Shown here: piece after piece, positions 1 through 38,203 of the stretch | Layout of the letters: each line of letters begins with the position of its first letter | Position numbering within the stretch: the stretch's first letter is position 1 | IMG/VR virus record: IMGVR_UViG_2565956716_000008 | Length of the DNA: 40,864 nucleotides | Strand: one strand, 5' to 3' | DNA from: a virus | Taxonomy: Duplodnaviria; Heunggongvirae; Uroviricota; Caudoviricetes | Position numbers and translations under genes: made by a program | Notes under the pieces: model-generated | The model's input: only the letters and a program-made list of their open reading frames with translations | The model's database searches: none | Told to the model about the DNA's origin: nothing

Positions 1-573
1 ATGTTTTGCGAAGAAAAAGTAGCTCAAATGGCTGCATACCTACTTCTTAAGAGAGGTGGGCGCATGGCATATCTGAAATTGATGAAGCTGCTCTATCTGT
101 CTAACCGCCAGTCGATTTTGAAGCATGGCAGGATGATCGGCGAAGATAGCCTTTACTCTATGAAATTTGGACCAGTCATGTCGAATACGCTGAACTTGAT
201 TCGCGGTAAGGCTGAAGGCATTGGTGACTACTGGTACAACTTGATAGAGACGAATGGGCATAATGTATCGTTGCGTTCAGATCCGAGGGAAATGGATGCA
301 GACGAGGTCTTTGATGAATTGAGTCGTGCAGATATCCGGATTTTAGATGAAATCTATTCTCGGTATGGGCATATGAACCGATTTGATCTCGCAAATATGA
401 CGCATTTAGAAAGCGTTTGTCCAGAGTGGCACGATCCTGGCAATTCTCGTAAGCCTATAGACCTGAAAGAAATGCTGATCAGTGAGGGTAAAAGCGAGGA
501 TGAGGCTAATCGCATAATTGGCAAAATGGAAGAATCTCAGAAACTTAAGGAATTTTCTTTGCAATTATCATGA
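1..573 (+). CDS. Panacea-domain (DUF4065/SocA-like) protein, putative antitoxin; N-terminus may be cut by the window edge
   Basis: 190-aa ORF with KLMKLLYL...GPV core typical of DUF4065; stop overlaps next start (ATGA at 570); AT-rich relative to prophage. Confidence 0.5.
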   Translation: MFCEEKVAQMAAYLLLKRGGRMAYLKLMKLLYLSNRQSILKHGRMIGEDSLYSMKFGPVMSNTLNLIRGKAEGIGDYWYNLIETNGHNVSLRSDPREMDADEVFDELSRADIRILDEIYSRYGHMNRFDLANMTHLESVCPEWHDPGNSRKPIDLKEMLISEGKSEDEANRIIGKMEESQKLKEFSLQLS

Positions 574-989
574 CGGATTATCAGCCATACAGGAAAGGAA
601 CTGTGCTTGCCCCAACTGGACCATGCAATCATCTTCATGTGATTTGTAATGATCCTGTTTATTACCCCGTTAACGATTGTTATTGTGTTTTAGTTGTTAA
701 TATTTCTAGTATCAAGGATGGTGTCCCCCACGATCCGTCTTGCGTCTTGAATTCTGGTGATCATCGCTTTATCAAGCATCCAAGTTATGTTGTTTACGCT
801 GAAGCTATAATTTGGCGAGTGGATAACATGGTTAGAAAGCAGCGATCGGGTGAGATTTCTGTTCATGATGATATGCCAGAAGCTACATTCAATAGAATTC
901 TGGACGGTTTTGATATCTCTGATGAAGTTACGCCAAAGAACCTTAAATTTAAAAATAAATATTGCGTATCATCTATTGATGATGAGTAA
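570..989 (+). CDS. hypothetical 139-aa protein translationally coupled to the Panacea-domain gene; candidate toxin partner
   Basis: ORF start overlaps upstream stop by 4 nt; AT-rich; no family recognised. Confidence 0.4.
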   Translation: MTDYQPYRKGTVLAPTGPCNHLHVICNDPVYYPVNDCYCVLVVNISSIKDGVPHDPSCVLNSGDHRFIKHPSYVVYAEAIIWRVDNMVRKQRSGEISVHDDMPEATFNRILDGFDISDEVTPKNLKFKNKYCVSSIDDE

Positions 990-1028
990 ACAACAGGAAT
1001 TGTTTCGGTATAACTTCTGGAGTTTTCT

Positions 1029-1202
1029 ATGGAAGATCAAAAAGCAACCAAGCCACAGGTTAAGTTCGACACAATGAAAGCATTCGCAGGTATGGGTGCT
1101 GCTGTTGAAGTTCTGATGAAGGCTGCTCCTAATGCGTTCACTCACGCTACTGTCTCTGGTAAAGAGCAGCAGGGTAAGCTTCGTCGTCGCAAAGCAGCAT
1201 GA
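1029..1202 (+). CDS. small hypothetical protein (57 aa), below ORF-track cutoff
   Basis: ATG at 1029 preceded by GGAG about 8 nt upstream; ends just before a strong terminator. Confidence 0.3.
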   Translation: MEDQKATKPQVKFDTMKAFAGMGAAVEVLMKAAPNAFTHATVSGKEQQGKLRRRKAA

Positions 1203-1221
1203 TCATAGCTGGTGCTTTTTG

Positions 1222-1248
1222 AAAACCCGCCTTTAGGCGGGTTTTTTC
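1222..1248. terminator. bidirectional rho-independent terminator
   Basis: aaaacccgcc-ttta-ggcgggtttttt hairpin flanked by A-run and T-run, between convergent genes. Confidence 0.6.
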
Positions 1249-1249
1249 T

Positions 1250-1531
1250 TTAGTGATGTTCTTTGCCCTTCTGTTTGCCTGTTCTGACCTGTTCCCACTC
1301 GATACGTCCTTCTTCTCGTCTTTTGTCTATGTATTCCGCAAGATCCTGAATATTGATGCAACGTTTTGCTTTTTGTGATGTGCCGATGCGATATGTTGGA
1401 ACGGGCAACTTACAAGCGTTTGCTTTTGCTTCTGCCGTGGCTGGACTCATGCCAAAGTACTTTTGGCTAACTGCTGAGAGTTCAATGTTAGGGGTATTGA
1501 ATTCAGCCATCAGTAAAAACAAGGTGTTCAT
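1250..1531 (-). CDS. PrtN/AlpA-like small DNA-binding protein (possible excisionase or activator)
   Basis: MNTLFLLMAEF...YFGMSP...LPVPTYRIG...QDLAEYID resembles PrtN family; GGAGAA RBS before internal ATG at 1531 (track ORF extends to 1558). Confidence 0.45.
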   Translation of the reverse strand: MNTLFLLMAEFNTPNIELSAVSQKYFGMSPATAEAKANACKLPVPTYRIGTSQKAKRCINIQDLAEYIDKRREEGRIEWEQVRTGKQKGKEHH

Positions 1532-1567
1532 AATTTTCTCCATCAAAACCGGCTGCACCCGGGAAAA

Positions 1568-2143
1568 TCATAATTCTGTGCTGGTGGCAGGAATTAATTT
1601 CTGCCAGATAGCGGAAACATATTTTGCCTGATGACGGGCATCAGCCAGGGCGTTGTGCCGTTCGCCATCGAAAGGCATGTCCATTTTGGGGTCGAATCCG
1701 ATGGAACGCCCAAGCGTAACGATCGTGCGTACATCGTGGTCATTCCAGTACGCCCACGGGCAGATTTGTCCTGCTCGCTCATAAGCTCCACGTAAAATTA
1801 CGTTGTCGAAGGTGGCCCCGTTACCCCAGACTTTTAAATATTTCGTATTGTCTGCGTGCCGGTTAATGAAATGGTTTAGTTCTGAGAGAGCATCGCTGAT
1901 CGACAAAGTATCATCAATACAGATTGCAGCTCGCGCTTCAGGGCTTTGTTTCAACCACCACAGGATGGTATCGCCGTCAGGTGTAGCTCCTTGCTTCATA
2001 GCACTGTCCAGGCTGACAACCGCATAGAATTCTTGTCCGATGTCTCCGGTTTCTGGAGTGAAGAACACCGCGCCAATGGAAACGATCGGTGCATCCTTAT
2101 TTTTCCCCATCGTCTCAAGGTCGATCATTAAGTTGTTCATCAC
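1568..2143 (-). CDS. DEDDh-type 3'-5' exonuclease
   Basis: IDLET motif, GNGATFDNVIL motif and C-terminal H...D motif (HNALADARH); start overlaps upstream stop. Confidence 0.6.
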   Translation of the reverse strand: MMNNLMIDLETMGKNKDAPIVSIGAVFFTPETGDIGQEFYAVVSLDSAMKQGATPDGDTILWWLKQSPEARAAICIDDTLSISDALSELNHFINRHADNTKYLKVWGNGATFDNVILRGAYERAGQICPWAYWNDHDVRTIVTLGRSIGFDPKMDMPFDGERHNALADARHQAKYVSAIWQKLIPATSTEL

Positions 2144-2892
2144 TTCACCTCCTGCGGCGGTTCCGGTAGCGGCATCCAGTGAGTTGCTTGCTCAATACCA
2201 TTACCCGGCTTAATCGTTGCATCTCCGCGCCGAAAGGTGCTTCCGGTATAGCGTGCGGAGCATATTAGCGGTTCAACCAGAGAGCTATCGAAATTCACCG
2301 AAATAAGCACGTTCTGGCCCTTTTCAGGCATTCGATCACTACAGCTTATCCAACTATCCGGAGTTCCCGGAGAGTTGCCATTTACATCGAAGTTTGGCTC
2401 TGCGTCCTGAACCAGGAGGATGTAACCATTCTTGGCCGTATCAAGTTCTAACGCCTCGGTGACGGTGCCGAAATAGCGATTACCTAAATCAGCATCACAA
2501 GTGCTAACATCAATGGAAACTTCCATGCCTTCGATTAATTCTGGCAAGTTGTAAGTTTGGTTTACAGGTTGGCCTCCCTGAAGCATGGCGGCGCGGTGAC
2601 ACCAGATAATCCAGCCAAGCGCCATATCCCATGCCATGTATTCTCTATCACCATTTTTTGCCCTGCGGCGATCTACAGATTCCCCGAAACGCTTCTCCAT
2701 AAATAATTCATAGGCTGCCCGTTCATCCGATACTGCTGCCAGCGATGCCAGTGCAATTTTAAATGCGGTAAGTATGTTGTTAACCTGACCTATTTCGAAT
2801 GCTATTTCACTACATACAAACGATTTATCGTCTATTATCGACTCAATTCCGGTAATCGTGTTCTGTAACCATTCTTTGGTAATAGTATTCAT
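2140..2892 (-). CDS. DUF551-domain phage protein
   Basis: C-terminal WISCSDRMPE...THWMPLPEPP signature; AAGGTGA RBS. Confidence 0.5.
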   Translation of the reverse strand: MNTITKEWLQNTITGIESIIDDKSFVCSEIAFEIGQVNNILTAFKIALASLAAVSDERAAYELFMEKRFGESVDRRRAKNGDREYMAWDMALGWIIWCHRAAMLQGGQPVNQTYNLPELIEGMEVSIDVSTCDADLGNRYFGTVTEALELDTAKNGYILLVQDAEPNFDVNGNSPGTPDSWISCSDRMPEKGQNVLISVNFDSSLVEPLICSARYTGSTFRRGDATIKPGNGIEQATHWMPLPEPPQEVK

Positions 2893-2894
2893 AA

Positions 2895-3086
2895 CTATTT
2901 CACCTTAATCTCAACATTTCGCAGCTTTAGCTCTACTGGCAGGTCTGACTTTCCGGTTAATGCTAATGCGAGATTTTCTGGAGTAATGAGAGCAGTTATT
3001 GTTTTCCCCCTCGCCAGACGAATAATCATTCGTATCTCGCGATCGTCACATGCTCCCGGTCGAACAATTGATATTTGTCCGATCAT
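2895..3086 (-). CDS. hypothetical small protein (63 aa)
   Basis: ATG at 3086 with AAGGAGA RBS; track ORF extends upstream to 3116. Confidence 0.3.
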   Translation of the reverse strand: MIGQISIVRPGACDDREIRMIIRLARGKTITALITPENLALALTGKSDLPVELKLRNVEIKVK

Positions 3087-3087
3087 C

Positions 3088-3669
3088 TCACTCTCCTTTG
3101 ATGCGAATGCCAGCAAGCCAGTTTCTTATGCCGATATATTCAGCGTTCCTGAAACCGCTTTTTACATATATAAATGGCAAGCGAAGATTGTGACCATTGG
3201 CTGCCAGGTAGTCTTTACAACCCTGTTCGGTGAAACAGCAGGTAACGAATTCATCAATATCTTTCACAGCAACGCGCCGCCATTTTTCTGGTGGTTCCCG
3301 AAAGTTTTCATGAAGTAGTTCGAGACGACGACTTTGGAGTTTATTGGCTTCATTGCCATCTTCATCAACCCAGACAATCCGGTCATAGTCATAATCAGCA
3401 TCAACAACAATTTCGCGCTTTTGATACACACAAAACATAGGGTCTGACGTTATTCGATTATCCTGTGTTCGAATATTTTCACCGATGATGCCAAACGAAT
3501 CTGGCGTAGGTTTTGTCTGTAACTCTTCGATACGTTCAGCCAGCGCCGCGCACTTGGCCTCAGCTTCAGCAAATTTACGCACCAAGTACTCAGCGTTTGT
3601 TTCGTTCACTTTCAGATCTCGCGGTACACATTTCCCGCGAAGAAACCCTTCCATTTCGAAAACATTCAT
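3088..3669 (-). CDS. hypothetical phage early protein
   Basis: 193-aa ORF; start ATG overlaps stop of upstream HD gene (ATGA). Confidence 0.35.
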   Translation of the reverse strand: MNVFEMEGFLRGKCVPRDLKVNETNAEYLVRKFAEAEAKCAALAERIEELQTKPTPDSFGIIGENIRTQDNRITSDPMFCVYQKREIVVDADYDYDRIVWVDEDGNEANKLQSRRLELLHENFREPPEKWRRVAVKDIDEFVTCCFTEQGCKDYLAANGHNLRLPFIYVKSGFRNAEYIGIRNWLAGIRIKGE

Positions 3670-4202
3670 GCGCATTTGCGTAACCCCGATAACTCGTTAA
3701 AACGTTCCATAAACATCCAGTAGGCATGGCCTGGTGACAGTGGAATAACTTTGAACATCTCTGTCGCCGGGATACCTTCCAGTACAGGCCAGAAAGAACC
3801 ATCATCAAGCCCGAGATCGCGGCGTTCGGTTGCCAGCATAATGAGATCGGCATATTTCACTGGCGTGCTCATAACAGGAGGTAACCCGTATTTCTCACGG
3901 ATTACGGCGTCTATTTTTTCTTCCATCCGTTTATAGTCAGGAAGAAGGCGTTTCAGTGGTGCGGGGATGTCCTGGCAATATGCTTCTGTTGCATCATGCA
4001 TTAACGCTTCAAAAGCAAATTCCTGCGGTACCAGCTGGCTGCAAAGCACCGCATGTTGGGCGACGCTGTAGAAGTGTGAAAGATGCCCTGCAAAGCGACA
4101 GATATTTGAAAGGGAAACCGCGATATCGTTAATCACGATGTCGTCTTTATTTATCTTGTCATAATAAAAATGCTTTCCGGAAAAAGTTTTAATAAATGAC
4201 AT
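3666..4202 (-). CDS. HD-domain phosphohydrolase (YfdR-like)
   Basis: H...HD metal-binding motifs (RFAGH, ALMHDATEAY); ATG at 4202 with GGAG RBS; track ORF 5' extension rejected. Confidence 0.6.
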   Translation of the reverse strand: MSFIKTFSGKHFYYDKINKDDIVINDIAVSLSNICRFAGHLSHFYSVAQHAVLCSQLVPQEFAFEALMHDATEAYCQDIPAPLKRLLPDYKRMEEKIDAVIREKYGLPPVMSTPVKYADLIMLATERRDLGLDDGSFWPVLEGIPATEMFKVIPLSPGHAYWMFMERFNELSGLRKCA

Positions 4203-4330
4203 TTTGTTCTCCACGTTATTTGCGCTGCACCGCACTGAATTTTGGTAAAAAGAAGCCCTTACCATCCGGCGATTATTGAGTAAATTACGCTTCCATAAAT
4301 GCCCCCGCAGGGGCATTTTCAGTAATGAAA

Positions 4331-5155
4331 TCAGGCGGTGAAAGTACCAATAAAGGTTTCTACTTTGCTGTCTTTGAATTTCTCAACAAGCAGATCACGA
4401 AATTCGTTAGCCATATCTTCCTGCACCGCTTCCAGCTGAATAATGCGCAGAACCAGTACAGGACGATCGCCAGTGATAATGCTGAGGCGTAATTTAAACG
4501 GACGTTCTTTCAGGCCTTCAAACGGAACGCATTTAAATTCAAATGCCACTGGCATAATGTCTTTGGTCTTCGCTTCGACAGACTCCATCAGGGAGCGTTT
4601 GCCGCTGAAGTCATTATCTTCAAAATCAGCGGTCTGGTTTGCTTCAATCGTGATTTTACGGACTGCCGCAGCCGCTTTTGTTGCCTGAATGGCGTCACCA
4701 TTCGCATCAAAGCCCACAAGGTAGTCGGCCCAGTCTTCAATCCATTCTGCCAGTGACTTCTGGGAGTTACGCTCGCCGTTAACAGACAACAGAGCAGAGA
4801 ACGGTGCTGTCTTTTTCAGTTTGAGAGTGGCGGTGTTATCTGCGTGACCTGGTTCATCAATAGTACCCAGGTTAAGCACACTAACGGCACGCATATTATC
4901 AGCATCGATAAAGCAGCGGGTGCCTTCATCTGCAAGATCTTTAGAATAACGGGTAAAATCATCGATGCTGGCAGTGGAAAGCGCGCCACGGAAACGGAAG
5001 CGATTTAAATTAAATTTTTCCAGATCATGAATGCGGAAATTCTCAGGCAATGCCACAGCATCGGCACCAATCTTACTGATAATTTCATTAACACCCTGAG
5101 CAGAAATAAGAGCATGGATTTGATTAATTGCGGTTGCGTCTAAGTTCTGAGACAT
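4331..5155 (-). CDS. YfdQ-like (DUF2303) phage protein
   Basis: 274-aa ORF matching size and position of YfdQ in the CPS-53-type yfdP-Q-R gene order; recognised by eye only. Confidence 0.5.
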
Positions 5156-5219
5156 AATAAGTCCTCACTATATAAAGATATTCAGTGATGAGATAAATAA
5201 TCAGTTTATTAATAACGTA

Positions 5220-5582
5220 TTAATGACCTGCTGCGCGGAGTTTTCCGTCAGGTTCACCGGCAAGAGTCAGTAATTGTCCCTGGTCTTCCTGCAGAATAGT
5301 CAGGCGACCACCGCGATTGACATACATCGGCGTTTCGGTGGTGTCTTCTTCGGAAATTTTCCCGCGGTTAGTCGGGCGAACATATGAGAGTTTGTGTTTG
5401 ATTTTCACACGGTTCTCATCAAATGGTTCGATTTCCAGGTTGAGTGAGACCTTACCTTTGGTTTTCGTGTTCATCACACCTGAAGCGACTTCACTGAGAA
5501 CTGCGCCGATTTTGGTTTCAAATACGCCGCCGTCCAGCTCCCCGATAAATGCCTGCACATCAGTACTGCGTTCGCTAGCCAT
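5220..5582 (-). CDS. hypothetical phage protein (YfdP-like by size and position)
   Basis: ATG at 5582 with AGGAG RBS 7 nt upstream; long 5' extension of track ORF crosses a structured non-coding region. Confidence 0.4.
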   Translation of the reverse strand: MASERSTDVQAFIGELDGGVFETKIGAVLSEVASGVMNTKTKGKVSLNLEIEPFDENRVKIKHKLSYVRPTNRGKISEEDTTETPMYVNRGGRLTILQEDQGQLLTLAGEPDGKLRAAGH

Positions 5583-5719
5583 TTTGCTGCTCCTCATCAT
5601 ATCGACCCTGCAAGGTCGGTTGGTTTCTCCACAAAACAGAGAAGAACACCTGCGGTGGCAGCCGCCCGGATGGATTGGGTTATGAGCCCGTCGTCCGGTG
5701 ATGCTCTTCTCTGTTTTGT

Positions 5720-5765
5720 AAAAAGAGCGGTACCAGCCGGAAGCAAGTGTACAAACTGGTACCGC
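5720..5765 (-). terminator. candidate intrinsic terminator in early-left operon leader
   Basis: gcggtaccag / ctggtaccgc 10-bp stem followed on minus strand by tcttttt. Confidence 0.35.
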
Positions 5766-6019
5766 GAGGACTACACACAGCATAAAGTTGTGGTGCCGGG
5801 TGCCTCCCGGTGCCTGGCGAAGGTTGCACACCAGGCGGGTGGGTATCCACAGAAGGTCGACTGTCAGCCTCAACCTTAACCCGCGTGCGCTGAGCCGCAT
5901 TCACCACAACGCTAAGGATTCTCTCTGGTTGAAAATACTTAGCTGTTATGTGCCTGTCTTTTCACCACTTCAGGCTCGGTGGTATCCTTTTAAGCCCGTA
6001 TACATAAAAGGAAAATCAA

Positions 6020-6265
6020 ATGACTTTTGATGAAAAAGAACTTGATAATGCAATTAATAAAATCATCGTAACGTCGCTCTTTTCCTGTCTCAGCGACACT
6101 CAGCAGAAACAGTTCTACGAATCGGCTTTCAACATGATCGAGCGTTGTTGTTTCTGCGATGCCGACGAGTTACCTGAAAAAATCAGGAAACAGTTGGCTG
6201 ATGCTCTTCGAGTGCGACTTTCTGACCAATTTTCTGAAATGTGCTCTCCGAATTTGGACAAATAG
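6020..6265 (+). CDS. hypothetical protein (81 aa) in AT-rich immunity-region insert
   Basis: AAGGA RBS 8 nt before ATG; overlaps 3' end of convergent ORF 6183..6458. Confidence 0.3.
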   Translation: MTFDEKELDNAINKIIVTSLFSCLSDTQQKQFYESAFNMIERCCFCDADELPEKIRKQLADALRVRLSDQFSEMCSPNLDK

Positions 6266-6458
6266 AAAAAGGCCATTTCCATTCAGGGTCTGATGGAAAT
6301 ACTTCAGCCTGTTCCAAAGCACGGCGTAAAGAGAATACAACTCCAGCCATAATCTGATGTTTCCCATTGGTCCAGCTATCGCCGCTCTGATCTACAGGAG
6401 CGGCTATGTCGTATGACCAAACGACTTCACCACTATTGTTTAAAATCTGGACTTTCAT
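6183..6458 (-). CDS. hypothetical protein (91 aa), first ORF downstream of PL
   Basis: GGAGG upstream of ATG; convergent 83-bp overlap with 6020..6265. Confidence 0.3.
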   Translation of the reverse strand: MKVQILNNSGEVVWSYDIAAPVDQSGDSWTNGKHQIMAGVVFSLRRALEQAEVFPSDPEWKWPFSICPNSESTFQKIGQKVALEEHQPTVS

Positions 6459-6577
6459 TTTGTTCTTTAACCTCCAGATACGGGCGTTTAATGGCCCCGC
6501 CGAACAGCTCTTTTCCGCAATAGCTGCAATGTCTTTCGCGCATCAGCCTGCGCATTCACCACAACTCTAAAAACAAA

Positions 6578-6628
6578 TGTAGGATATCCAACATGTGAGT
6601 GTCAAGAGTTTATGTTGGTTATCCTACA
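6578..6628. promoter_or_regulatory. OL-like operator pair with leftward promoter (PL)
   Basis: tgtaggatatccaaca (6578-6593) and tgttggttatcctaca (6613-6628); minus-strand TTGACA at 6600-6605 between them. Confidence 0.5.
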
Positions 6629-6643
6629 TAAAAAGATAGGCTC

Positions 6644-6670
6644 ATAAAAAAACCGGGGATACCCCGGTTT
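6644..6670 (-). terminator. rho-independent terminator after repressor gene
   Basis: ccggggtatccccgg hairpin followed by 7 T on minus strand. Confidence 0.6.
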
Positions 6671-6691
6671 TGCGATAGTGAGGAAGATGTG

Positions 6692-7345
6692 TCAAAAATC
6701 CATTATTACTTGTTTGACAAGACCAACTATTCTGCAGTTCTCACCGCATTCAATAGTTTTATAGTTAGGATTTAGTGGGACGAGATACCTGTTCGGCCAG
6801 TCCTCAACAAATTTTTTGAGTGTCGCTTCTTGCCCACCATTGATATGGGCAACAACGATTTTTCCGTTAATACACTCTGTATCAATAATATCTGGCTCTA
6901 CGATAACGATAGAACCTTCTGGTATCGATGGTGAGCCGAGGGGATTGGTCATTGAATCACCACGGACCCGTAGTGCAAATGCCATTTCTGATACAAGGGC
7001 GGTAGTATAAACCCACTCTTCAGCATCTTCTTTCCTGACACCAGGCTCCGTCATTGTCCATGAACCCGCCTGAACCCACGAGATGAGGGGGACTTTTTTA
7101 ACTGCGAATATTTCAGGTTTTAGATTTATCTTTGGTTCAGGCGAGCCTTTTCCGCTAACAAGCCACAGAGGATCGCATTTAAGTGCGTTGGCTAGGGCTT
7201 GAAGGTTGGCTCCATTTGGTTGGTAGTCGTCCTTTTCCCATCCAGTAACCGTGACACGGTTCACACCAGTCAAATCAGCCAGTGCTTGTTGTGTCAGGTT
7301 CAGTTCTTTTCGCCTTTGGCGAATACGATCACTCATGTTCATCAT
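6692..7345 (-). CDS. cI-like repressor (HTH plus S24 LexA-type peptidase domain)
   Basis: N-terminal HTH (LTQQALADLTGVNRVTV), AG cleavage site, GDSM serine and C-terminal lysine; divergent from Cro-like gene. Confidence 0.8.
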   Translation of the reverse strand: MMNMSDRIRQRRKELNLTQQALADLTGVNRVTVTGWEKDDYQPNGANLQALANALKCDPLWLVSGKGSPEPKINLKPEIFAVKKVPLISWVQAGSWTMTEPGVRKEDAEEWVYTTALVSEMAFALRVRGDSMTNPLGSPSIPEGSIVIVEPDIIDTECINGKIVVAHINGGQEATLKKFVEDWPNRYLVPLNPNYKTIECGENCRIVGLVKQVIMDF

Positions 7346-7409
7346 GTAGGCAATCCTACCACATGCCCATGTAGGATTCTTGACATTGGTATGTTGGATA
7401 TCCTACATT
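7344..7409. promoter_or_regulatory. OR-like operators with rightward promoter (PR)
   Basis: three TGTAGG/CCTACA-type palindromes (7344-7361, 7371-7386, 7392-7407); TTGACA 7380-7385, 18-nt spacer, TACATT. Confidence 0.5.
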
Positions 7410-7440
7410 TCTGCTTAACGTAATTTAACGGGAGACAGAA

Positions 7441-7638
7441 ATGTGGAAATCCGACGTGATTAATTATTTCGGCGGAGTTTGTAAAACCGCCGAAGCCCTA
7501 GGTATTAAGCATCCGTCTGTTTCAGAGTGGCCTGAGATTATTCCTGAAGGCCGAGCGTACCAGTTAGAAAAAATTACTAACGGGAAACTGAAAGTTGACG
7601 TGTCTTTATATCAAAAGACTAACAGTGCTGCGGCATAA
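7441..7638 (+). CDS. Cro-like small DNA-binding protein
   Basis: 65 aa, divergent from repressor, GGAG RBS, Cro/YdaS-like sequence character. Confidence 0.55.
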   Translation: MWKSDVINYFGGVCKTAEALGIKHPSVSEWPEIIPEGRAYQLEKITNGKLKVDVSLYQKTNSAAA

Positions 7639-27380: not shown

Positions 27381-27535
27381 CGGCTGAATACCTCACTGAT
27401 CGCTTCTTTGACTGCGCCAGCTACTGGCGCATTAATCCTTTCGAATTGCTGAATATGCCGATCAGTGAAATTCCCTTGCTGGTCAGTCAGGCAAACAGGA
27501 TAGAGCAGGAGAAACGCACACATGGCGGAATTTGA
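27347..27535 (+). CDS. -1 frame extension of tail assembly chaperone (frameshift product)
   Basis: -1 frame open from slippery heptamer T TTT TTC (27362-27368) and overlapping tape-measure start. Confidence 0.4.
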   Translation: MACGWFFPPGLTAEYLTDRFFDCASYWRINPFELLNMPISEIPLLVSQANRIEQEKRTHGGI

Positions 27536-29354
27536 GCTTAAGGCGTTGATCACCGGTGTCGACAGGCTTTCTCCCGCGCTGTCGAAAATGCAAAAGAAAA
27601 TCCGGGGATTTAAACGCCAGGCGGAAGAAGCGTCACAGGGTGGGCTGGCGCTTGGTGGCGGACTGGCAGCGGGTCTGACGCTTTCCCTGAAATCTTATGC
27701 CGATCAGGAAAACGCCGCCACCGGGCTGAAAGTCGCCATGATGGATGCGAACGGCGAGGTCGGAAAGAGCTTTCAGGACATCAATAAACTGGCTATTGGC
27801 CTGGGTAACCAGCTACCAGGTACAACGGCTGATTTCCAGAACATGATGCAGATGCTGGTGCGTCAGGGGATCCCGGCAGAAAATATTCTTGGCGGTGTGG
27901 GTAAAGCGACAGCTTATCTTGCGGTACAACTGAAAAAAACACCGGAAGCGGCTGCTGAGTTTGCTGCAAAGATGCAGGATGCTACCGGAACGGCGTCAGA
28001 AGACATGATGGGGCTGTTCGACACTATCCAGAAGGCGTTTTATCTGGGTGTTGACGATACCAACATGTTGTCCTTCTTCACTAAAACCAGCTCTGTTCTG
28101 AAGATGGTGAACAAGGACGGTCTTCAGGCTGCACAGAGCCTTGCCCCCATCAGCGTCATGATGGATCAGATGGGGATGAACGGGGAGTCGGCAGGTAACG
28201 CCCTGCGAAAAGTTATCCAGTCCGGATTAAGCGTTAAGAAAATCAGGGACGTCAATAAAATCATGGCCCGCCAGAAACTCGGGGTACAGCTCGATTTTAC
28301 TGACGGCAAAGGAAGTTTTGGCGGTCTTGATAACATGTTCAGGCAACTGGCAAAGCTGCGAAAACTGACCGACGTTAAGCGAACAGGTGTACTTAAGGCA
28401 ATATTTGGTGATGATGCCGAAACCCTTCAGGTGGTCAATGCACTAATCGATAAAGGAAAGGATGGCTACGATCAGATCCAGCAGAAGATGAATAAACAGG
28501 CCAGCCTGAATAAACGTGTTCAGGCCCAGCTTGGTACGCTGTCCAACCTGTGGGAGGCAATGACGGGGACCGCAACTAACGGCCTTGCGGCTATTGGCGG
28601 CGCATTTTCTGGTGACGCCAAAAATATCACGCAATGGCTGGGGGAGTTAGGGGAAAAATTCACGAAGTTTGCGGATGAAAATCCCCGGGTTATTCGCGGC
28701 GTCGTCGGGCTTGCTGCCGGTCTTGCGATTCTGAAACTGGGATTGATGGGCGTTGGCGGTGCCATCAGTATTGTCAGCAGGATTATGTCGATGACGCCGA
28801 TTGGCATGATTGCGACGGCGATTGCTCTGGCTGCGGGATTAATTATCACTAACTGGGATGTTGTCGGACCTTATTTCAAGAAGCTCTGGGAAACCATTGG
28901 TCCTTATTTTGAGGCAGGTTGGGAACTTCTGAAGAAGGTTTTTGCCTGGTCGCCGCTGGGGATGGTGATCAATAACTGGGGACCGGTTGTTAAGTGGTTT
29001 CAGGATATGTGGGACAAGCTGAAGCCAATTATTGAGTGGTTTACCGACAGTTCCGGTGACACGGTCGATGCCATTAACTCTGCGCAGTGGGGCGCGGGTG
29101 CTTATGATGCTTATGGGACGGGAATACCGGCGCGGGGATACACACCTTATCCGGCGGTGGATCCGGCTCAGTCAAACAACGCCTCCGATGCCACAGGCTC
29201 GAATCCCTTCATGATTAACAAAGCTTCTGTGCCAAAAGTTGATGGTGAGATCAAGGTCTCTTTTGTGAATTCGCCTCCGGGTATGCGGGTTATGGAAACG
29301 CGATCCAGCGGTTTTGATGTCAGCCATGATGTTGGCTATACGCGGTTCAGGTAG
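27522..29354 (+). CDS. tail tape measure protein
   Basis: 610 aa, helical/Gly-rich segments, position. Confidence 0.75.
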   Translation: MAEFELKALITGVDRLSPALSKMQKKIRGFKRQAEEASQGGLALGGGLAAGLTLSLKSYADQENAATGLKVAMMDANGEVGKSFQDINKLAIGLGNQLPGTTADFQNMMQMLVRQGIPAENILGGVGKATAYLAVQLKKTPEAAAEFAAKMQDATGTASEDMMGLFDTIQKAFYLGVDDTNMLSFFTKTSSVLKMVNKDGLQAAQSLAPISVMMDQMGMNGESAGNALRKVIQSGLSVKKIRDVNKIMARQKLGVQLDFTDGKGSFGGLDNMFRQLAKLRKLTDVKRTGVLKAIFGDDAETLQVVNALIDKGKDGYDQIQQKMNKQASLNKRVQAQLGTLSNLWEAMTGTATNGLAAIGGAFSGDAKNITQWLGELGEKFTKFADENPRVIRGVVGLAAGLAILKLGLMGVGGAISIVSRIMSMTPIGMIATAIALAAGLIITNWDVVGPYFKKLWETIGPYFEAGWELLKKVFAWSPLGMVINNWGPVVKWFQDMWDKLKPIIEWFTDSSGDTVDAINSAQWGAGAYDAYGTGIPARGYTPYPAVDPAQSNNASDATGSNPFMINKASVPKVDGEIKVSFVNSPPGMRVMETRSSGFDVSHDVGYTRFR

Positions 29355-29453
29355 TGTACAAAATGATTAATGTGTTTTTGTCTGGCATAATTTGGGTTTT
29401 CAGCTTTAAGTAGTTAATATAATCATTCCTTACAAATGATTGAAGGGATGATT

Positions 29454-29948
29454 ATGCGTATCTTTGTTTTTTTTATATCTGCACTTTTATCTTTTAACTT
29501 GGCTGCGGAAGAGTGTAAGTTCAGCTTTAATGAGTCAGAATTAATCTCTTCTATAGGTATTGCACCAGTTAAGCAAGAGATAATAAAGGATGAAGGAATA
29601 ACTAAGCGGCAATATGAATTCAGAAGAGAATTATCTTCTGAAGAAATGCTTAGTGATGACGCTGATGAAAAATATGAGCCGCAGTTTTATATATCTGTTT
29701 ATAATCCATCATGCCCACAAAAGGTTATTGTTTGGTTTTTCAAAGACAATAAAAACACAATGGATTTAAGTAATGAGGTCCTTGCTGGTAGAGCGTTCAA
29801 GTATTTAACTGGTGTTAATGAAAGTATTTTTGAAAATAAAATGAAAAAGTTTTTAAAGGTACAGTCATTTGAATCTTTTGATGAAAGGACAGATTCTAAA
29901 TTTATAAAGAGTGGTAATATTTATTCCATTGATGTTCAACTCAGATAG
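29454..29948 (+). CDS. secreted small protein of unknown function (tail-region moron)
   Basis: AT-rich; signal peptide MRIFVFFISALLSFNLAA then EE; own TATAAT (29418-29423) and terminator; two Cys. Confidence 0.5.
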   Translation: MRIFVFFISALLSFNLAAEECKFSFNESELISSIGIAPVKQEIIKDEGITKRQYEFRRELSSEEMLSDDADEKYEPQFYISVYNPSCPQKVIVWFFKDNKNTMDLSNEVLAGRAFKYLTGVNESIFENKMKKFLKVQSFESFDERTDSKFIKSGNIYSIDVQLR

Positions 29949-29967
29949 TAATTAAAAATATTAGGTT

Positions 29968-30023
29968 CCCGCCACATCTTCTGCGATGTAAATAACTGAC
30001 AAAGCAGATTTGGCGGGTTTTTT
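29968..30023 (+). terminator. rho-independent terminator after moron
   Basis: cccgccacatct ... agatttggcggg stem followed by tttttt. Confidence 0.5.
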
Positions 30024-30038
30024 GTATCCGGAGTTTAT

Positions 30039-31367
30039 ATGACGTGGAAAGACAGGCTTCAGGATGCGTCATTTCGCGGCGTACCGTTTAAGGTTGAAGA
30101 AGAAAGTGCGGGAACCGGTCGCCGTGTGGAAACACACGAATATCCGAACCGCGACAAGCCCTATACCGAAGATCTGGGAAAAGTCACTTTCCGCCCGTCC
30201 ATCACAGCTTATGTGGTGGGAGATGACTGCTTTGACCAGCGCGATCGCCTGATTGAAGCGCTGAATAAACCCGGTCCCGGCACGCTTGTCCACCCGACAT
30301 ATGGTGAGCTGAAAGTCTGTGTTGACGGGGAAGTTCGGGTCAGCACATCGAAAAGTGAAGGGCGTATTGTCCGCTTTGACCTGAAGTTTGTCGAAGCAGG
30401 AGAACTCTCTTACCCCACATCAGGTGCGGCGACGGCGCAGACGCTGATGTCATCCTGTTCTGCACTGGATGACTGCATCAGTGACAGCTTCAGCGGTTTC
30501 AGTATCGATGGTGTGGCGGATTTTGTGCAGAACGACGTTATCGGTAATGCCAGCATAATGCTGGGGTATGTTTCTGATGCGATGAAAGTGGTGGATTCTG
30601 CCGTATCGGATGCCGCCAGGCTGTTGCAGGGGGATATCTCGGTACTTCTGCCGCCGCCATCGTCAGGCAAAAATTTCGTTGAGCAGGTGCAGAAAATGTG
30701 GCGTACCGGGAAACGCCTTTATGGTAACGCCAGCGACCTGGTCACCATGATCAAAACGCTTTCCGGTGTCAGCCTCGGCAGCGATCTGCAACCGCGCGGC
30801 GTCTGGAAAACGGACAGTAAAACCACCGCCACGGCGACGCAGCAGCGTAACGTGGTTGCCAGCACCCTTCGTACGACCGCAATCAGCGAAGCGGCGTATG
30901 CCGTCACCCGATTGCCTGCGCCAACAACTTCCGCGGTGATGCAGAATTCCGCAGTGGGGCAGGCAACAACACCTGCGCAGAGCACTGGCTGGCCTTCCGT
31001 CACGCATCCGGCACTGAACAATGCACCGGCGGTGAAAAACACAGTTGACCTGCCGACGTGGGAAGAACTGACTGACATTCGCGACACACTGAATACGGCA
31101 ATTGATAAGGAGTTGTCCCGTACAACCAGTGATGCGCTGTTTCTGGCGCTGCGCCGGGTGAAAGCAGATCTGAATGCGGATATCAACACGCGCCTTGAAC
31201 AGTCTGCACGGATCATTCAGCGCACACCGGATGAGGTTTTACCCGCGCTGGTGCTGGCGGCGACCTGGTTTGATAACGCGGCGCGTGACGCGGACATTAT
31301 CCGGCGTAATGCCATTACGCATCCCGGCTTTGTGCCGGTGATCCCTCTGAAGGTGCCAGTGCAATGA
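30039..31367 (+). CDS. DNA circularisation protein (Mu gp43-like)
   Basis: N-terminal WKDRLQDASFRGVPF...HEYPNRD...EDLG signature. Confidence 0.6.
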   Translation: MTWKDRLQDASFRGVPFKVEEESAGTGRRVETHEYPNRDKPYTEDLGKVTFRPSITAYVVGDDCFDQRDRLIEALNKPGPGTLVHPTYGELKVCVDGEVRVSTSKSEGRIVRFDLKFVEAGELSYPTSGAATAQTLMSSCSALDDCISDSFSGFSIDGVADFVQNDVIGNASIMLGYVSDAMKVVDSAVSDAARLLQGDISVLLPPPSSGKNFVEQVQKMWRTGKRLYGNASDLVTMIKTLSGVSLGSDLQPRGVWKTDSKTTATATQQRNVVASTLRTTAISEAAYAVTRLPAPTTSAVMQNSAVGQATTPAQSTGWPSVTHPALNNAPAVKNTVDLPTWEELTDIRDTLNTAIDKELSRTTSDALFLALRRVKADLNADINTRLEQSARIIQRTPDEVLPALVLAATWFDNAARDADIIRRNAITHPGFVPVIPLKVPVQ

Positions 31368-35765: not shown

Positions 35766-36367
35766 TGAATAAAGCCGTATTAAATAGCGAACTCATTACT
35801 ACAAAGGCAGGAAACATTACCGTTTATAATTTTGATGCTGAGACGAAGGAATATCTTTCCACATCAACCGAATATCTTGTTGTGGGTGTCGGTATTCCGG
35901 CGCATTCCTGTTTAGATGCTCCTGGTATATATAAGGCTGGTTATACTATCTGCCGTTCAGCAGATTTAAAATCATGGGAATATATGCCAGACCATCGCGG
36001 TGAAATCGTTTTTAGCACCGAAACAGGGGAATCAAAAGAAATCACAGCTCCGGGTGATTACCCTGATAATACAACCACTATCGCCCCGTTAACGCCATAC
36101 GATAAATGGGATGGTGAGAAATGGGTGACGGATACCGAGGCACAGCACGGCGCAGCAGTAGATGCAGCAGAAGCACAGCGCCAGTCGCTGATTGATACTG
36201 CAATGGCTTCCATTAGTCTGATTCAGCTGAAATTACAGGCCGGACGGAAGCTGACGCAGGCAGAAACCAACCGAATTAACACGGTGCTGGATTACATTGA
36301 CGCGGTGACGGCAACAGATACCAGCACCGCGCCGGATGTCATCTGGCCTGAACTGCCGGAGGCGTAG
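35765..36367 (+). CDS. tail fibre assembly protein (active orientation)
   Basis: 200 aa, Tfa-type C-terminus. Confidence 0.65.
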   Translation: MNKAVLNSELITTKAGNITVYNFDAETKEYLSTSTEYLVVGVGIPAHSCLDAPGIYKAGYTICRSADLKSWEYMPDHRGEIVFSTETGESKEITAPGDYPDNTTTIAPLTPYDKWDGEKWVTDTEAQHGAAVDAAEAQRQSLIDTAMASISLIQLKLQAGRKLTQAETNRINTVLDYIDAVTATDTSTAPDVIWPELPEA

Positions 36368-36791
36368 GCCATTCAATATCTGGCGCACTGGAGGTATCGA
36401 CCAGCTCCAGTGCGTCCAGATAATCCAGCCACAAATTATATTGTGCCAGTTCCTCACCTTTCAGACGACCAATAGCGGCTTTACCGGGCCATTGCTTACT
36501 GTTCATGTATTCGTTGGCCTGGTTAATTAGTAGCTGTCTTTCTGATTCAGTAATTTCAATAAGTTCTTCATGCGTGGGTGGAGGAATATCTGCCCACGCA
36601 GGCAGCCCATCATCTCCGGCAATACGGATTTTTCCTTGTGGCGGTTCAGCCATAAACTCACTGATAATATTTTGATTTACTTCCTTAGCGTCTGATAAAT
36701 CCCATCCCTCTGATTTATATTTATCAATCATATCCACAGGGAAAAAAGCATTATGCCTTGCGCTATAAACATATTCGTTCATATAAATCAC
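36339..36791 (-). CDS. tail fibre assembly protein (alternative orientation)
   Basis: 150 aa, convergent with other Tfa, similar C-terminal motif. Confidence 0.65.
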   Translation of the reverse strand: MIYMNEYVYSARHNAFFPVDMIDKYKSEGWDLSDAKEVNQNIISEFMAEPPQGKIRIAGDDGLPAWADIPPPTHEELIEITESERQLLINQANEYMNSKQWPGKAAIGRLKGEELAQYNLWLDYLDALELVDTSSAPDIEWPTPPAVQAR

Positions 36792-36802
36792 CCTGAATAA
36801 AA

Positions 36803-37171
36803 TTACTCACCAACAGCCCACCAACTGTAATTCATCGATACCGTGTCGCTGGTTGATGACGTTCTGTAAGCAGAATTAAAGCCGGTTAACGTTGGGCCTT
36901 CTGCAGTCATCACGAACCCTCGCCCAGCGCCTAAAGGCGCACCGCCATCACCAGAATGAGTAAGCATGGCGCAGTCCGCTTTTTTGGGGAAAGGGATGCT
37001 GAATGTAATTCTCATTGTTTGCGTCGATAATGTCGGCGTAACCGCACCACGACCATATTGCAGGATTTTCCCGTTGGGTAATTTCATCCATCCATCACCA
37101 CTGGCAAAAGAGGCCATGTCCGGTATCTGATTTTCCCCTGTCCCCACATCCCGTTTTGCCGCTTCTCCCAA
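36803..37171 (-). CDS. alternative tail fibre C-terminal segment (promoterless, fused on inversion)
   Basis: open frame runs into inversion site; in-frame with fibre constant part after inversion. Confidence 0.5.
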   Translation of the reverse strand: MGEAAKRDVGTGENQIPDMASFASGDGWMKLPNGKILQYGRGAVTPTLSTQTMRITFSIPFPKKADCAMLTHSGDGGAPLGAGRGFVMTAEGPTLTGFNSAYRTSSTSDTVSMNYSWWAVGE

Positions 37172-37188
37172 ACCAACCTTTCAAATAT
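37163..37188. other. Hin/Gin-type inversion site (distal)
   Basis: TTCTCCCAAACC AA CCTTTCAAATAT; reverse complement shares 14 nt with proximal site. Confidence 0.5.
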
Positions 37189-37247
37189 TTTTCTGAATCA
37201 GGTGATATTTCGCCTCTTCTCCTGTTTTTACAACAGGAGAAGCACTC

Positions 37248-37811
37248 ATGATTTACGGGTATGTTCGTGTATCAACAAATCATCAGGATACAGAGTTGCA
37301 ACGTCTTGCACTTGAGTCAGCTGGCTGTGAGCGAATTTATGAAGAATATGCCAGTGGCAGAACAGCTAATCGCCCTGTGTTAAAGGAATTAATTACGGTG
37401 ATGAAAAGTGGAGATGAGTTGATTGTCTGGAAGTTAGATCGGATAGGGAGAAATGTGCTGCATGCGCTATTGATGTTTCAAAATCTGCACGAAAAAGGTG
37501 TTAATTTTCGGAGTATTACAGATGGCGTAGACCTGAAAACAGCAAGTGGTCGCTATAATTTCCGTAATATTCTTTCTGCTGCGCAGTATGAATCTGATTT
37601 GAATAGCGAGCGAACTTTAGCTGGTTTGGCTATTGCCAGATCCAAAGGCCGGATTGGTGGGCGTAGACCGAAGTTTAGCGACGAGCAGTGGCAACAGATG
37701 GGAGCGCTCATAGCGGCAGGGAAATCACGGCGTTATGTTGCACGTATCTATAACGTTGGGCTATCAACCCTATATAAACGATTTCCTGTTACTGGCATTC
37801 AAACGAAATAA
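37248..37811 (+). CDS. pin: Pin/Gin/Hin-family serine DNA invertase
   Basis: N-terminal YVRVSTNHQ catalytic serine motif, C-terminal HTH; adjacent to invertible segment. Confidence 0.85.
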   Translation: MIYGYVRVSTNHQDTELQRLALESAGCERIYEEYASGRTANRPVLKELITVMKSGDELIVWKLDRIGRNVLHALLMFQNLHEKGVNFRSITDGVDLKTASGRYNFRNILSAAQYESDLNSERTLAGLAIARSKGRIGGRRPKFSDEQWQQMGALIAAGKSRRYVARIYNVGLSTLYKRFPVTGIQTK

Positions 37812-37954: not shown

Positions 37955-38203
37955 TTAGTGAACAAACCACTCGTCAGCAGATTCCCAGGTATCTTTCAGA
38001 GTCTCCTGAACAAAAGTTTTTGCAGAATCCTTATCTGCGGTGCGTGTAACAGAAAGGCCATCGTTGCTGGTGGCTTTTACGATCACCTCTACATCGTCAT
38101 AACGTTTACTGATGCGTCGGGTTAATTCTTCCTTTAACGCATCCACAGCACCGGTTGGCATTTTAGTCATTTTTTCTTTGGCTATGCAGATTTCAATACG
38201 CAT
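37955..38203 (-). CDS. DinI-like SOS-response protein
   Basis: 82 aa, MRIE...[10 protein letters not shown] DinI signature; LexA boxes in promoter. Confidence 0.7.

Follow-up and report, generated by a model that had tools for sequence, protein, structure and literature searches.

Toxins encoded beside Panacea-domain genes were surveyed by Kurata et al. (2022, PNAS; PMC8832971), who defined 88 toxin clusters. In the available rows of Dataset S1 of that paper, cluster T6 consists of antitoxin-first pairs with overlaps of -4 or -1, and the members listed there include Pantoea septica LMG 5345, 'Yersiniaceae bacterium 2016Iso4', Proteus vulgaris, Pluralibacter gergoviae, Photorhabdus, Halomonas and Pseudomonas moraviensis. 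The P. moraviensis pair is among nine PanAT pairs newly validated in the survey: its PanT was toxic, was neutralised by its own PanA and was recovered together with it in a pull-down, and it specifically blocked incorporation of 35S-Met and was assigned to EndoA/PemK/MazF by HHpred (PMC8832971). Here we conclude that the first 989 nucleotides of a 40,864-nucleotide stretch of Caudoviricetes DNA (IMG/VR record IMGVR_UViG_2565956716_000008; the whole stretch is called the window) very likely form a type II toxin-antitoxin (TA) cassette, panA-panT, that travels as accessory cargo (a 'moron') beside attL of a prophage. In this cassette PanA would bind and inactivate PanT, and free PanT would stop growth by shutting down protein synthesis, most likely through the cutting of RNA.

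The window locus and the P. moraviensis system (WP_083354365.1 and WP_083201923.1, cluster T6) share their general plan. In the window, panA (positions 1..573, + strand) begins with ATG and encodes a standalone Panacea-domain antitoxin of 190 amino acids without an extra N-terminal domain, and panT (570..989, + strand) encodes a T6 PanT-family toxin of 139 amino acids with a predicted MazF/Kid-like fold. The P. moraviensis pair is likewise an antitoxin-first two-gene unit with an overlap of 1-4 nt and a standalone Panacea antitoxin. The two antitoxins share the N-terminus M[FI]xxE[QK]KVAQ, and the two toxins, of about 132-139 amino acids, share the signature HLHxxxNDP ... VNISS ... HDxSCIL ... 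HxF ... SxVVY ... GFxIS. The MazF/PemK assignment is also common to both, having been reached by HHpred for the P. moraviensis toxin (PMC8832971) and by a fold search for the window toxin. The two pairs differ at about 57% of their residues, and since PanAs are specific to their own PanT, cross-neutralisation is not expected (PMC8832971). They differ in setting as well: the window pair lies in a prophage in dusA of E. coli, whereas the P. moraviensis pair is marked 'NotPhage' in the available part of the published table (PMC8832971).

Comparison of related loci places the window toxin in this known cluster. A scan with one genome per species identified 28 loci with a PanT relative, and at every locus for which upstream sequence was present, a + strand open reading frame (ORF) of about 185-200 amino acids ends at or just before the toxin start, typically with an overlap of 4 or 1 nt or a gap of a few nt. 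All of these upstream ORFs (26/26, window included) match PF13274, across Gamma-, Beta- and Alphaproteobacteria. Within this set of loci, sequence conservation is higher for the toxin than for the antitoxin, the common pattern in TA pairs. Two loci correspond to strains in the T6 table. Locus L009 is Pantoea septica LMG 5345, has the -4 overlap given there and encodes a toxin 56% identical to the window PanT; locus L008 is Chimaeribacter/'Yersiniaceae bacterium' 2016-Iso4, has the -1 overlap given there and encodes a toxin 55-56% identical. Each of these strains appears once among the rows listed in Dataset S1, under T6 only.

The P. moraviensis pair itself can be approached through its published termini. 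Kurata et al. extended its PanA to a start at MIFSEQKVAQ, which is equivalent to the start of the window PanA, and the primers they used for cloning point to a PanT beginning with MPGNIL and ending in IRQNNF (PMC8832971). Our Pseudomonas locus L042 has a PanA starting VIFSEQKVAQ and a PanT starting MPGNIV and ending RNNNL, and its proteins are 43% (PanT, E 1e-32) and 42% (PanA, E 3e-33) identical to those of the window. Cluster T1 (E. coli MOD1, Salmonella phage Emek; reported as 'not toxic') was considered as the true family of the window toxin and rejected, as a tblastn search of the phage collection with PanT misses phage Emek and the matched strains stand under T6 only among the rows listed. 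The suggestion of the sequence-only reading that the toxin may be a new family is therefore not upheld: on sequence comparison, the window PanT belongs to cluster T6 of Kurata et al. 2022, and its predicted fold is that of MazF/Kid. The family is a very large one. When a library clustered at 50% identity was searched with the family profile, 3,314 representatives had E <= 1e-3 and 1,646 had E <= 1e-10. This family of more than 3,000 clusters has no model in Pfam, NCBIfam or PADLOC. With this result, two 'hypothetical' genes that about 4% of complete E. coli genomes and several temperate phages carry can be placed in a validated TA family; the current understanding of TA systems is unchanged by it.

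Several annotations of family members were noted along the way. In the Pseudomonas phage Sirocco the toxin (L039:1501-1863) is unannotated, a small opposite-strand ORF being called instead, and the gene call for the L042 toxin (~2058-2456) is truncated at its N-terminus. A Proteus member (P0017 cluster) carries three GenBank accessions of one series (AYY81064.1, AYY81154.1 and AYY82117.1), which may be several identical copies in one genome, for example in several related prophages.

The identity of the antitoxin agrees with what had been proposed from sequence alone. PanA matches PF13274 (SocA_Panacea) over residues 27-137 with E 2.2e-19 and 70.9 bits against a cut-off of 25.7, and its RefSeq name is 'Panacea domain-containing protein' (WP_000458584.1). 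The question whether its true N-terminus might lie upstream is settled by the neighbouring sequence: homologues begin at the same residues (MF/IFxExKVAQMAAY) and an in-frame TAA lies 81 nt upstream of panA in the 100%-identical record of E. coli KH_005, and therefore the protein is complete as called. The AlphaFold2 (AF2) model of PanA, built from a 36-sequence alignment, is one compact fold with a predicted local distance difference test (pLDDT) score of 93.6 and a predicted template modelling (pTM) score of 0.90, with a long C-terminal helix (residues 166-189) and no disordered tail. This compact, confidently predicted fold fits direct neutralisation by a standalone Panacea protein, as proposed in PMC10440598, so that the globular Panacea body of PanA would itself hold the toxin inactive. 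Neither a search of PDB sequences with a PanA-family profile nor a Foldseek search of PDB (2026 copy) with the model found a related solved structure. Residues E142, W143, P146 and I153 are near-invariant among PanAs paired with a T6-type toxin; they form a motif, PEWxDPxxSxxPI, which sits just past the Pfam domain boundary. These four residues are candidates for a toxin-binding surface.

Panacea antitoxins are found with quite different partners. SocAB of Caulobacter is a type VI TA system and the founding Panacea/SocA member, and its antitoxin has the same Pfam domain as PanA. SocA acts as ClpXP adaptor for SocB, a toxin that binds DnaN, whereas the partner in the window is predicted to be a MazF-fold protein; SocB belongs to cluster T10 (PMC8832971) and the window PanT to T6. 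PanA was also scored against the NCBIfam SocA equivalog NF047745, where it reached 14.4 bits against a cut-off of 190, which rules it out as a SocA orthologue. In the validated T3 pair of E. coli STEC O31 (PMC8832971) a standalone Panacea antitoxin likewise comes first, and the toxin is a small transmembrane, membrane-targeting protein unrelated to the window PanT.

The start of panT needs correction in the databases. RefSeq places it at GTG603, giving a protein of 128 amino acids, which drops 11 conserved residues and part of the first strand. Homologues in Enterobacterales, Vibrio and Shewanella are 46-79% identical to the window toxin and all 130-150 amino acids long. Residues 1-11 are conserved across them and strand beta1 begins at residue 10 in the model. 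Because residues 1-11 are conserved, we conclude that ATG570 is the correct start.

A search of the 139-amino-acid product against known toxin families, the step proposed in the earlier reading, was negative in sequence libraries and positive at the level of predicted fold. Pfam gave only a sub-threshold ICMT match to PanT and no PF02452 at E <= 1, NCBIfam gave only sub-threshold aminotransferase noise, and in PADLOC-DB 2.0 no model matched PanA, PanT or orf57, the small gene downstream of panT, at E <= 1. The only PHROGs match of PanT was phrog_19071, of unknown function, and a PanT-family profile had no real match among PDB sequences. The AF2 model of PanT (pLDDT 90, pTM 0.83) was then compared with PDB by Foldseek, and the first 50 places were all taken by MazF, Kid, MoxT or EndoA with probabilities of 0.87-1.0. 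The matches of the model were confined to toxins of the MazF, Kid and CcdB types, which puts the predicted fold of PanT in the CcdB/MazF toxin superfamily and nearest to its RNase members.

We examined residue conservation over 166 diverse members of the PanT family. The most constant positions are H21 (100%), H65 and Y76 (99% each), D55, C58 and S/T47 (98% each), G113 (97%), S72 (96%) and S117 (94%), and the window PanT keeps every family-invariant residue. The catalytic residues of E. coli MazF are R29 and T52. When strand order is followed by hand, H21 would fall at the place of MazF R29 and S46/S47 at the place of T52/T53, and D55, C58 and H65 lie in a longer connection after the third strand. 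The simplest reading is a His-based RNase centre in PanT. The RNase assignment draws on the modelled fold together with the translation phenotype of a 43%-identical relative, a block of translation in the T6 relative being the one functional result reported for the family. A forced, low-stringency alignment of PanT with MazF was also made; it was collinear over the whole domain, was not significant and was not used for catalytic residues.

In comparison to MazEF, Kid-Kis and PemIK, whose toxins belong to PF02452, the window pair is distinct in both of its parts. The window PanT has no detectable sequence similarity to these toxins. It carries an elaboration of about 25 residues between beta3 and the next long strand and two extra C-terminal helices relative to MazF, and its invariant His/Asp/Cys/His residues are unlike those of MazF. 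The antitoxin of the window pair is a globular Panacea protein, whereas MazE is of AbrB or ribbon-helix-helix (RHH) type with a disordered tail.

Certain of these results weigh against a MazF-type TA pair at this locus. Alignment of the PanT family with MazF by hhalign gave a probability below 1% in each of three set-ups (E. coli MazF alone, a 5-sequence MazF/Kid/ChpBK/EndoA profile, and the 166-sequence PanT-family profile). The PanT invariants H21, D55, C58, H65, S72 and Y76 differ from the catalytic Arg/Thr of MazF. The tie to the P. moraviensis PanT is indirect, running through the available rows of the cluster table, primer-derived termini and a close Pseudomonas relative. Finally, 8 of 25 candidate PanTs were non-toxic in E. 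coli and 5 were toxic without rescue in the published survey (PMC8832971).

The layout of the locus is consistent with a coupled two-gene unit. The overlap read at ATGA (570..573, + strand), in which the panT ATG begins at 570 and the panA TGA occupies 571-573, is present in the sequence as first described, and it would couple translation of the two genes, which would be made from one transcript. The pair is AT-rich against the prophage, as had also been claimed, most clearly in the toxin gene: GC content is 42.9% for panA, 38.3% for panT (30.7% at third codon positions of panT) and 42.0% for positions 1-1250, compared to 46.0% for the early-left genes at 1251-7500 and 52.4% for the remaining prophage at 7501-39400. 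An intrinsic terminator hairpin at 1221..1246 closes the panA-panT-orf57 unit and divides it from the convergent xis and early-left genes, the first of which is an excisionase of the PrtN family (1250..1558, - strand; PF11112 at E 4e-23 and phrog_1300). An 11-bp stem leads into TTTTTTCTTT, and the hairpin has a dG of -21.7 kcal/mol (z -4.2 vs shuffles). Of the strong bidirectional terminator first described, then, the strength holds; bidirectionality is plausible but weaker on the minus strand, where the U run after the GC core stops at four and the terminator scan made no call. Upstream of panA promoter-like sites are no commoner than in shuffled sequence, and we claim no promoter there. An Rfam search of 1-1250 returned no match.

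The locus was first placed at the left edge of a prophage, and att-site alignment bears this out. Positions 1-1,300 are 100% identical to E. coli KH_005 and 99.5% identical to phages Lys8385Vzw and SKA5. When attL (KH_005), attR (window) and attP (Lys8385Vzw) are aligned, the prophage is seen to interrupt dusA at its 5' end; attL is the displaced 5' piece of that gene and ends 254 nt left of window position 1. At the far end, the attR crossover lies inside dusA at approximately 39547..39554 (ATGCTCGA), beside the gene for a dusA-specific tyrosine integrase (int, 38265..39362, - strand; PF00589). A dedicated integrase family is already known to insert prophages and islands at the start of dusA (PMC4482086). 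Within this lambdoid, mEp460-like prophage in E. coli dusA, panA is the gene next to attL. The gene order of phage Lys8385Vzw is int - attP - panA, and in the circular phage int therefore lies directly upstream of panA across attP. Upon integration a phage-borne surrogate for the dusA 5' end is fused to the host gene at ~39547-39554, and dusA is thereby restored (39451-40488). The displaced native 5' end, 105 nt long, is oriented into panA (L002:5643-6000, ~358 to 1 nt left of the window), and no + strand terminator was predicted between it and panA. The native dusA promoter was presumably kept with the displaced piece, so that expression of panA-panT could depend on integration and read-through from this promoter would possibly aid expression in the lysogen.

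The slot between attL and orf57 is occupied by different genes in different relatives. The full panA-panT cassette is present in 205 of 5,426 E. coli genomes. In four other E. coli genomes sampled and in phage mEp460, the slot has a 177-amino-acid gene and no PanAT; this gene lies at L033:1781-2314 in E. coli O157 FDAARGOS_293, occurs also in L032, L034 and L035, and is gp23 of mEp460 (L003:3284-3817). Its product, WP_000956557.1, matches phrog_4350, has no Pfam or PADLOC match and is unrelated to PanAT; it may be a defence or exclusion factor encoded by one gene. Homology between the two alleles breaks exactly at the ribosome-binding site of orf57. Such an arrangement suggests a cargo hotspot with swappable alleles, and the two-allele slot at the dusA attL offers a clean natural experiment on the benefit of cargo to the lysogen. 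PanAT was also found at differing positions and with differing flanks in temperate phages of Yersinia, Klebsiella, Vibrio and Pseudomonas; a search of the plasmid collection gave no match. A Panacea-neutralised TA module carried as prophage cargo, the central proposal of the sequence-only reading, fits both this architecture and the family membership.

Downstream of panT lies orf57 (1029..1202, + strand), which encodes 57 amino acids, and has GGAG 6 nt upstream of its start. Both RefSeq and phage records annotate the gene, and its whole length aligns with phrog_2741 (E 8.4e-36), a family of unknown function. The micro-ORF had been taken for a gene with a good ribosome-binding site and for part of the cargo module, and only the former stands. 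The 285-bp orf57 region (1016-1300, which includes the xis start) occurs in 564 of the 5,426 E. coli genomes, with or without PanAT, and comparison of these relatives points to orf57 as a phage backbone micro-gene outside the TA module.

How the cassette works and what it serves can be read in more than one way, and the readings differ in how well they fit these data. For the window pair we infer toxicity, neutralisation within a complex and a translation target from its relatives: by analogy with P. moraviensis PanAT, PanA would bind PanT directly and hold it inactive, and free PanT would halt growth by shutting down protein synthesis, most likely by RNA cleavage. It is unlikely that PanT is no MazF-type RNase at all and instead uses the MazF/CcdB scaffold with a Cys/His/Asp or metal centre (H21, D55, C58, H65) to act on a translation component, or poisons gyrase as CcdB does. 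That the pair is inert or decayed and lacks toxin activity in E. coli is less likely still, although about a third of PanT candidates were non-toxic in that host (PMC8832971): both ORFs are intact and 99.5-100% conserved in the 205 E. coli genomes and two phages, all family-invariant residues are kept, and both protein models are confident. The reading that fares worst, and that we regard as highly improbable, is a three-gene system with the 57-amino-acid protein as chaperone, regulator or second antitoxin. The gene is on the same strand as panAT after a gap of 39 nt, with no promoter-like or terminator-like site in between and a common terminator, and it is probably co-transcribed with the pair. 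However, orf57 is 98% identical in the five sampled relatives in which the 177-amino-acid gene replaces PanAT, the recombination breakpoint leaves its ribosome-binding site as the exact boundary, the Yersinia and Klebsiella phage copies of PanAT have no orf57 adjacent, and a tblastn search of the phage collection with orf57 matches only E. coli phages. These comparative data largely refute a three-gene module.

For the two-gene TA cassette that we favour, the role would be superinfection defence and/or prophage retention, and the data do not discriminate between the two. We put forward tentatively, as a fair possibility short of an even chance, that the pair acts in abortive infection against phages, with the PanAT complex idle in the lysogen until PanA senses a product of an incoming phage, or disappears once host expression is switched off, and with the released PanT arresting translation before the invader finishes. 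This is compatible with the TA mechanism and differs from it in purpose only. The pair sits apart from the lytic operons, in a swappable accessory slot at one end of the prophage and with a terminator of its own, which would suit such a function, and it turns up again as cargo in other, unrelated temperate phages. Panacea has been proposed as a sensor, with the TA network tied to defence systems (PMC10440598), and a capsid-triggered toxSAS system is described in a paper that mentions Panacea/DUF4065 once (PMC9712102), the toxSAS system being a fused one (PMC10440598). Against this stand the lack of any PADLOC 2.0 match, the lack of T6 PanAT phage-challenge data in PMC8832971, PMC10440598 and a full-text literature search for DUF4065, and the fact that an addiction module is equally expected in a prophage. 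Retention by addiction, in which loss of the prophage would let a presumably labile PanA run out so that leftover PanT poisons the cell and the element is stabilised in dusA, seems to us rather doubtful. Type II TA modules on mobile elements classically behave in this way, the cassette lies beside attL and would be lost along with the element, and the native dusA promoter with its first 105 nt faces panA so that expression could need the integrated state. Yet the PanA model has no disordered region of the sort typical of protease-labile antitoxins, and most sister prophages are without the cassette. A more elaborate proposal, which we rate as decidedly unlikely, joins several of these elements: T6 PanT would be a MazF-scaffold enzyme with a new H21/D55/C58/H65 centre (a Cys/His/Asp triad or metal site), and the prophage copy an abortive-infection switch with PanA as phage sensor, turned on only after integration, by read-through from the captured host dusA promoter.

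Other features of the prophage were recorded outside the panA-panT region. The lowest GC content of the window (0.32) is at 29501-30000, within and beside a 170-amino-acid ORF (29436-29948, + strand) whose N-terminus is hydrophobic and resembles a signal peptide; the ORF matches phrog_8976, of unknown function, with no Pfam or PADLOC match. It is inserted after the tape-measure gene (27522-29354), ahead of the tail gene that follows (30039-31367), and has the look of a second piece of cargo within the tail operon. In the early-left region, 5718-5940 (- strand) matches the small RNA family STnc100 of Rfam (RF02076) with 49.1 bits against a gathering score of 47. Toward the right end, a serine recombinase/invertase gene (37248-37811, + strand; PF00239 and HTH_7) adjoins a tail-fibre assembly gene (36339-36791, - strand; PF02413), which suggests that 36339-37811 is an invertible tail-fibre (host-range) segment of the Gin/Cin type. 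The dinI gene (37955-38203, - strand) lies between this invertase region and int.

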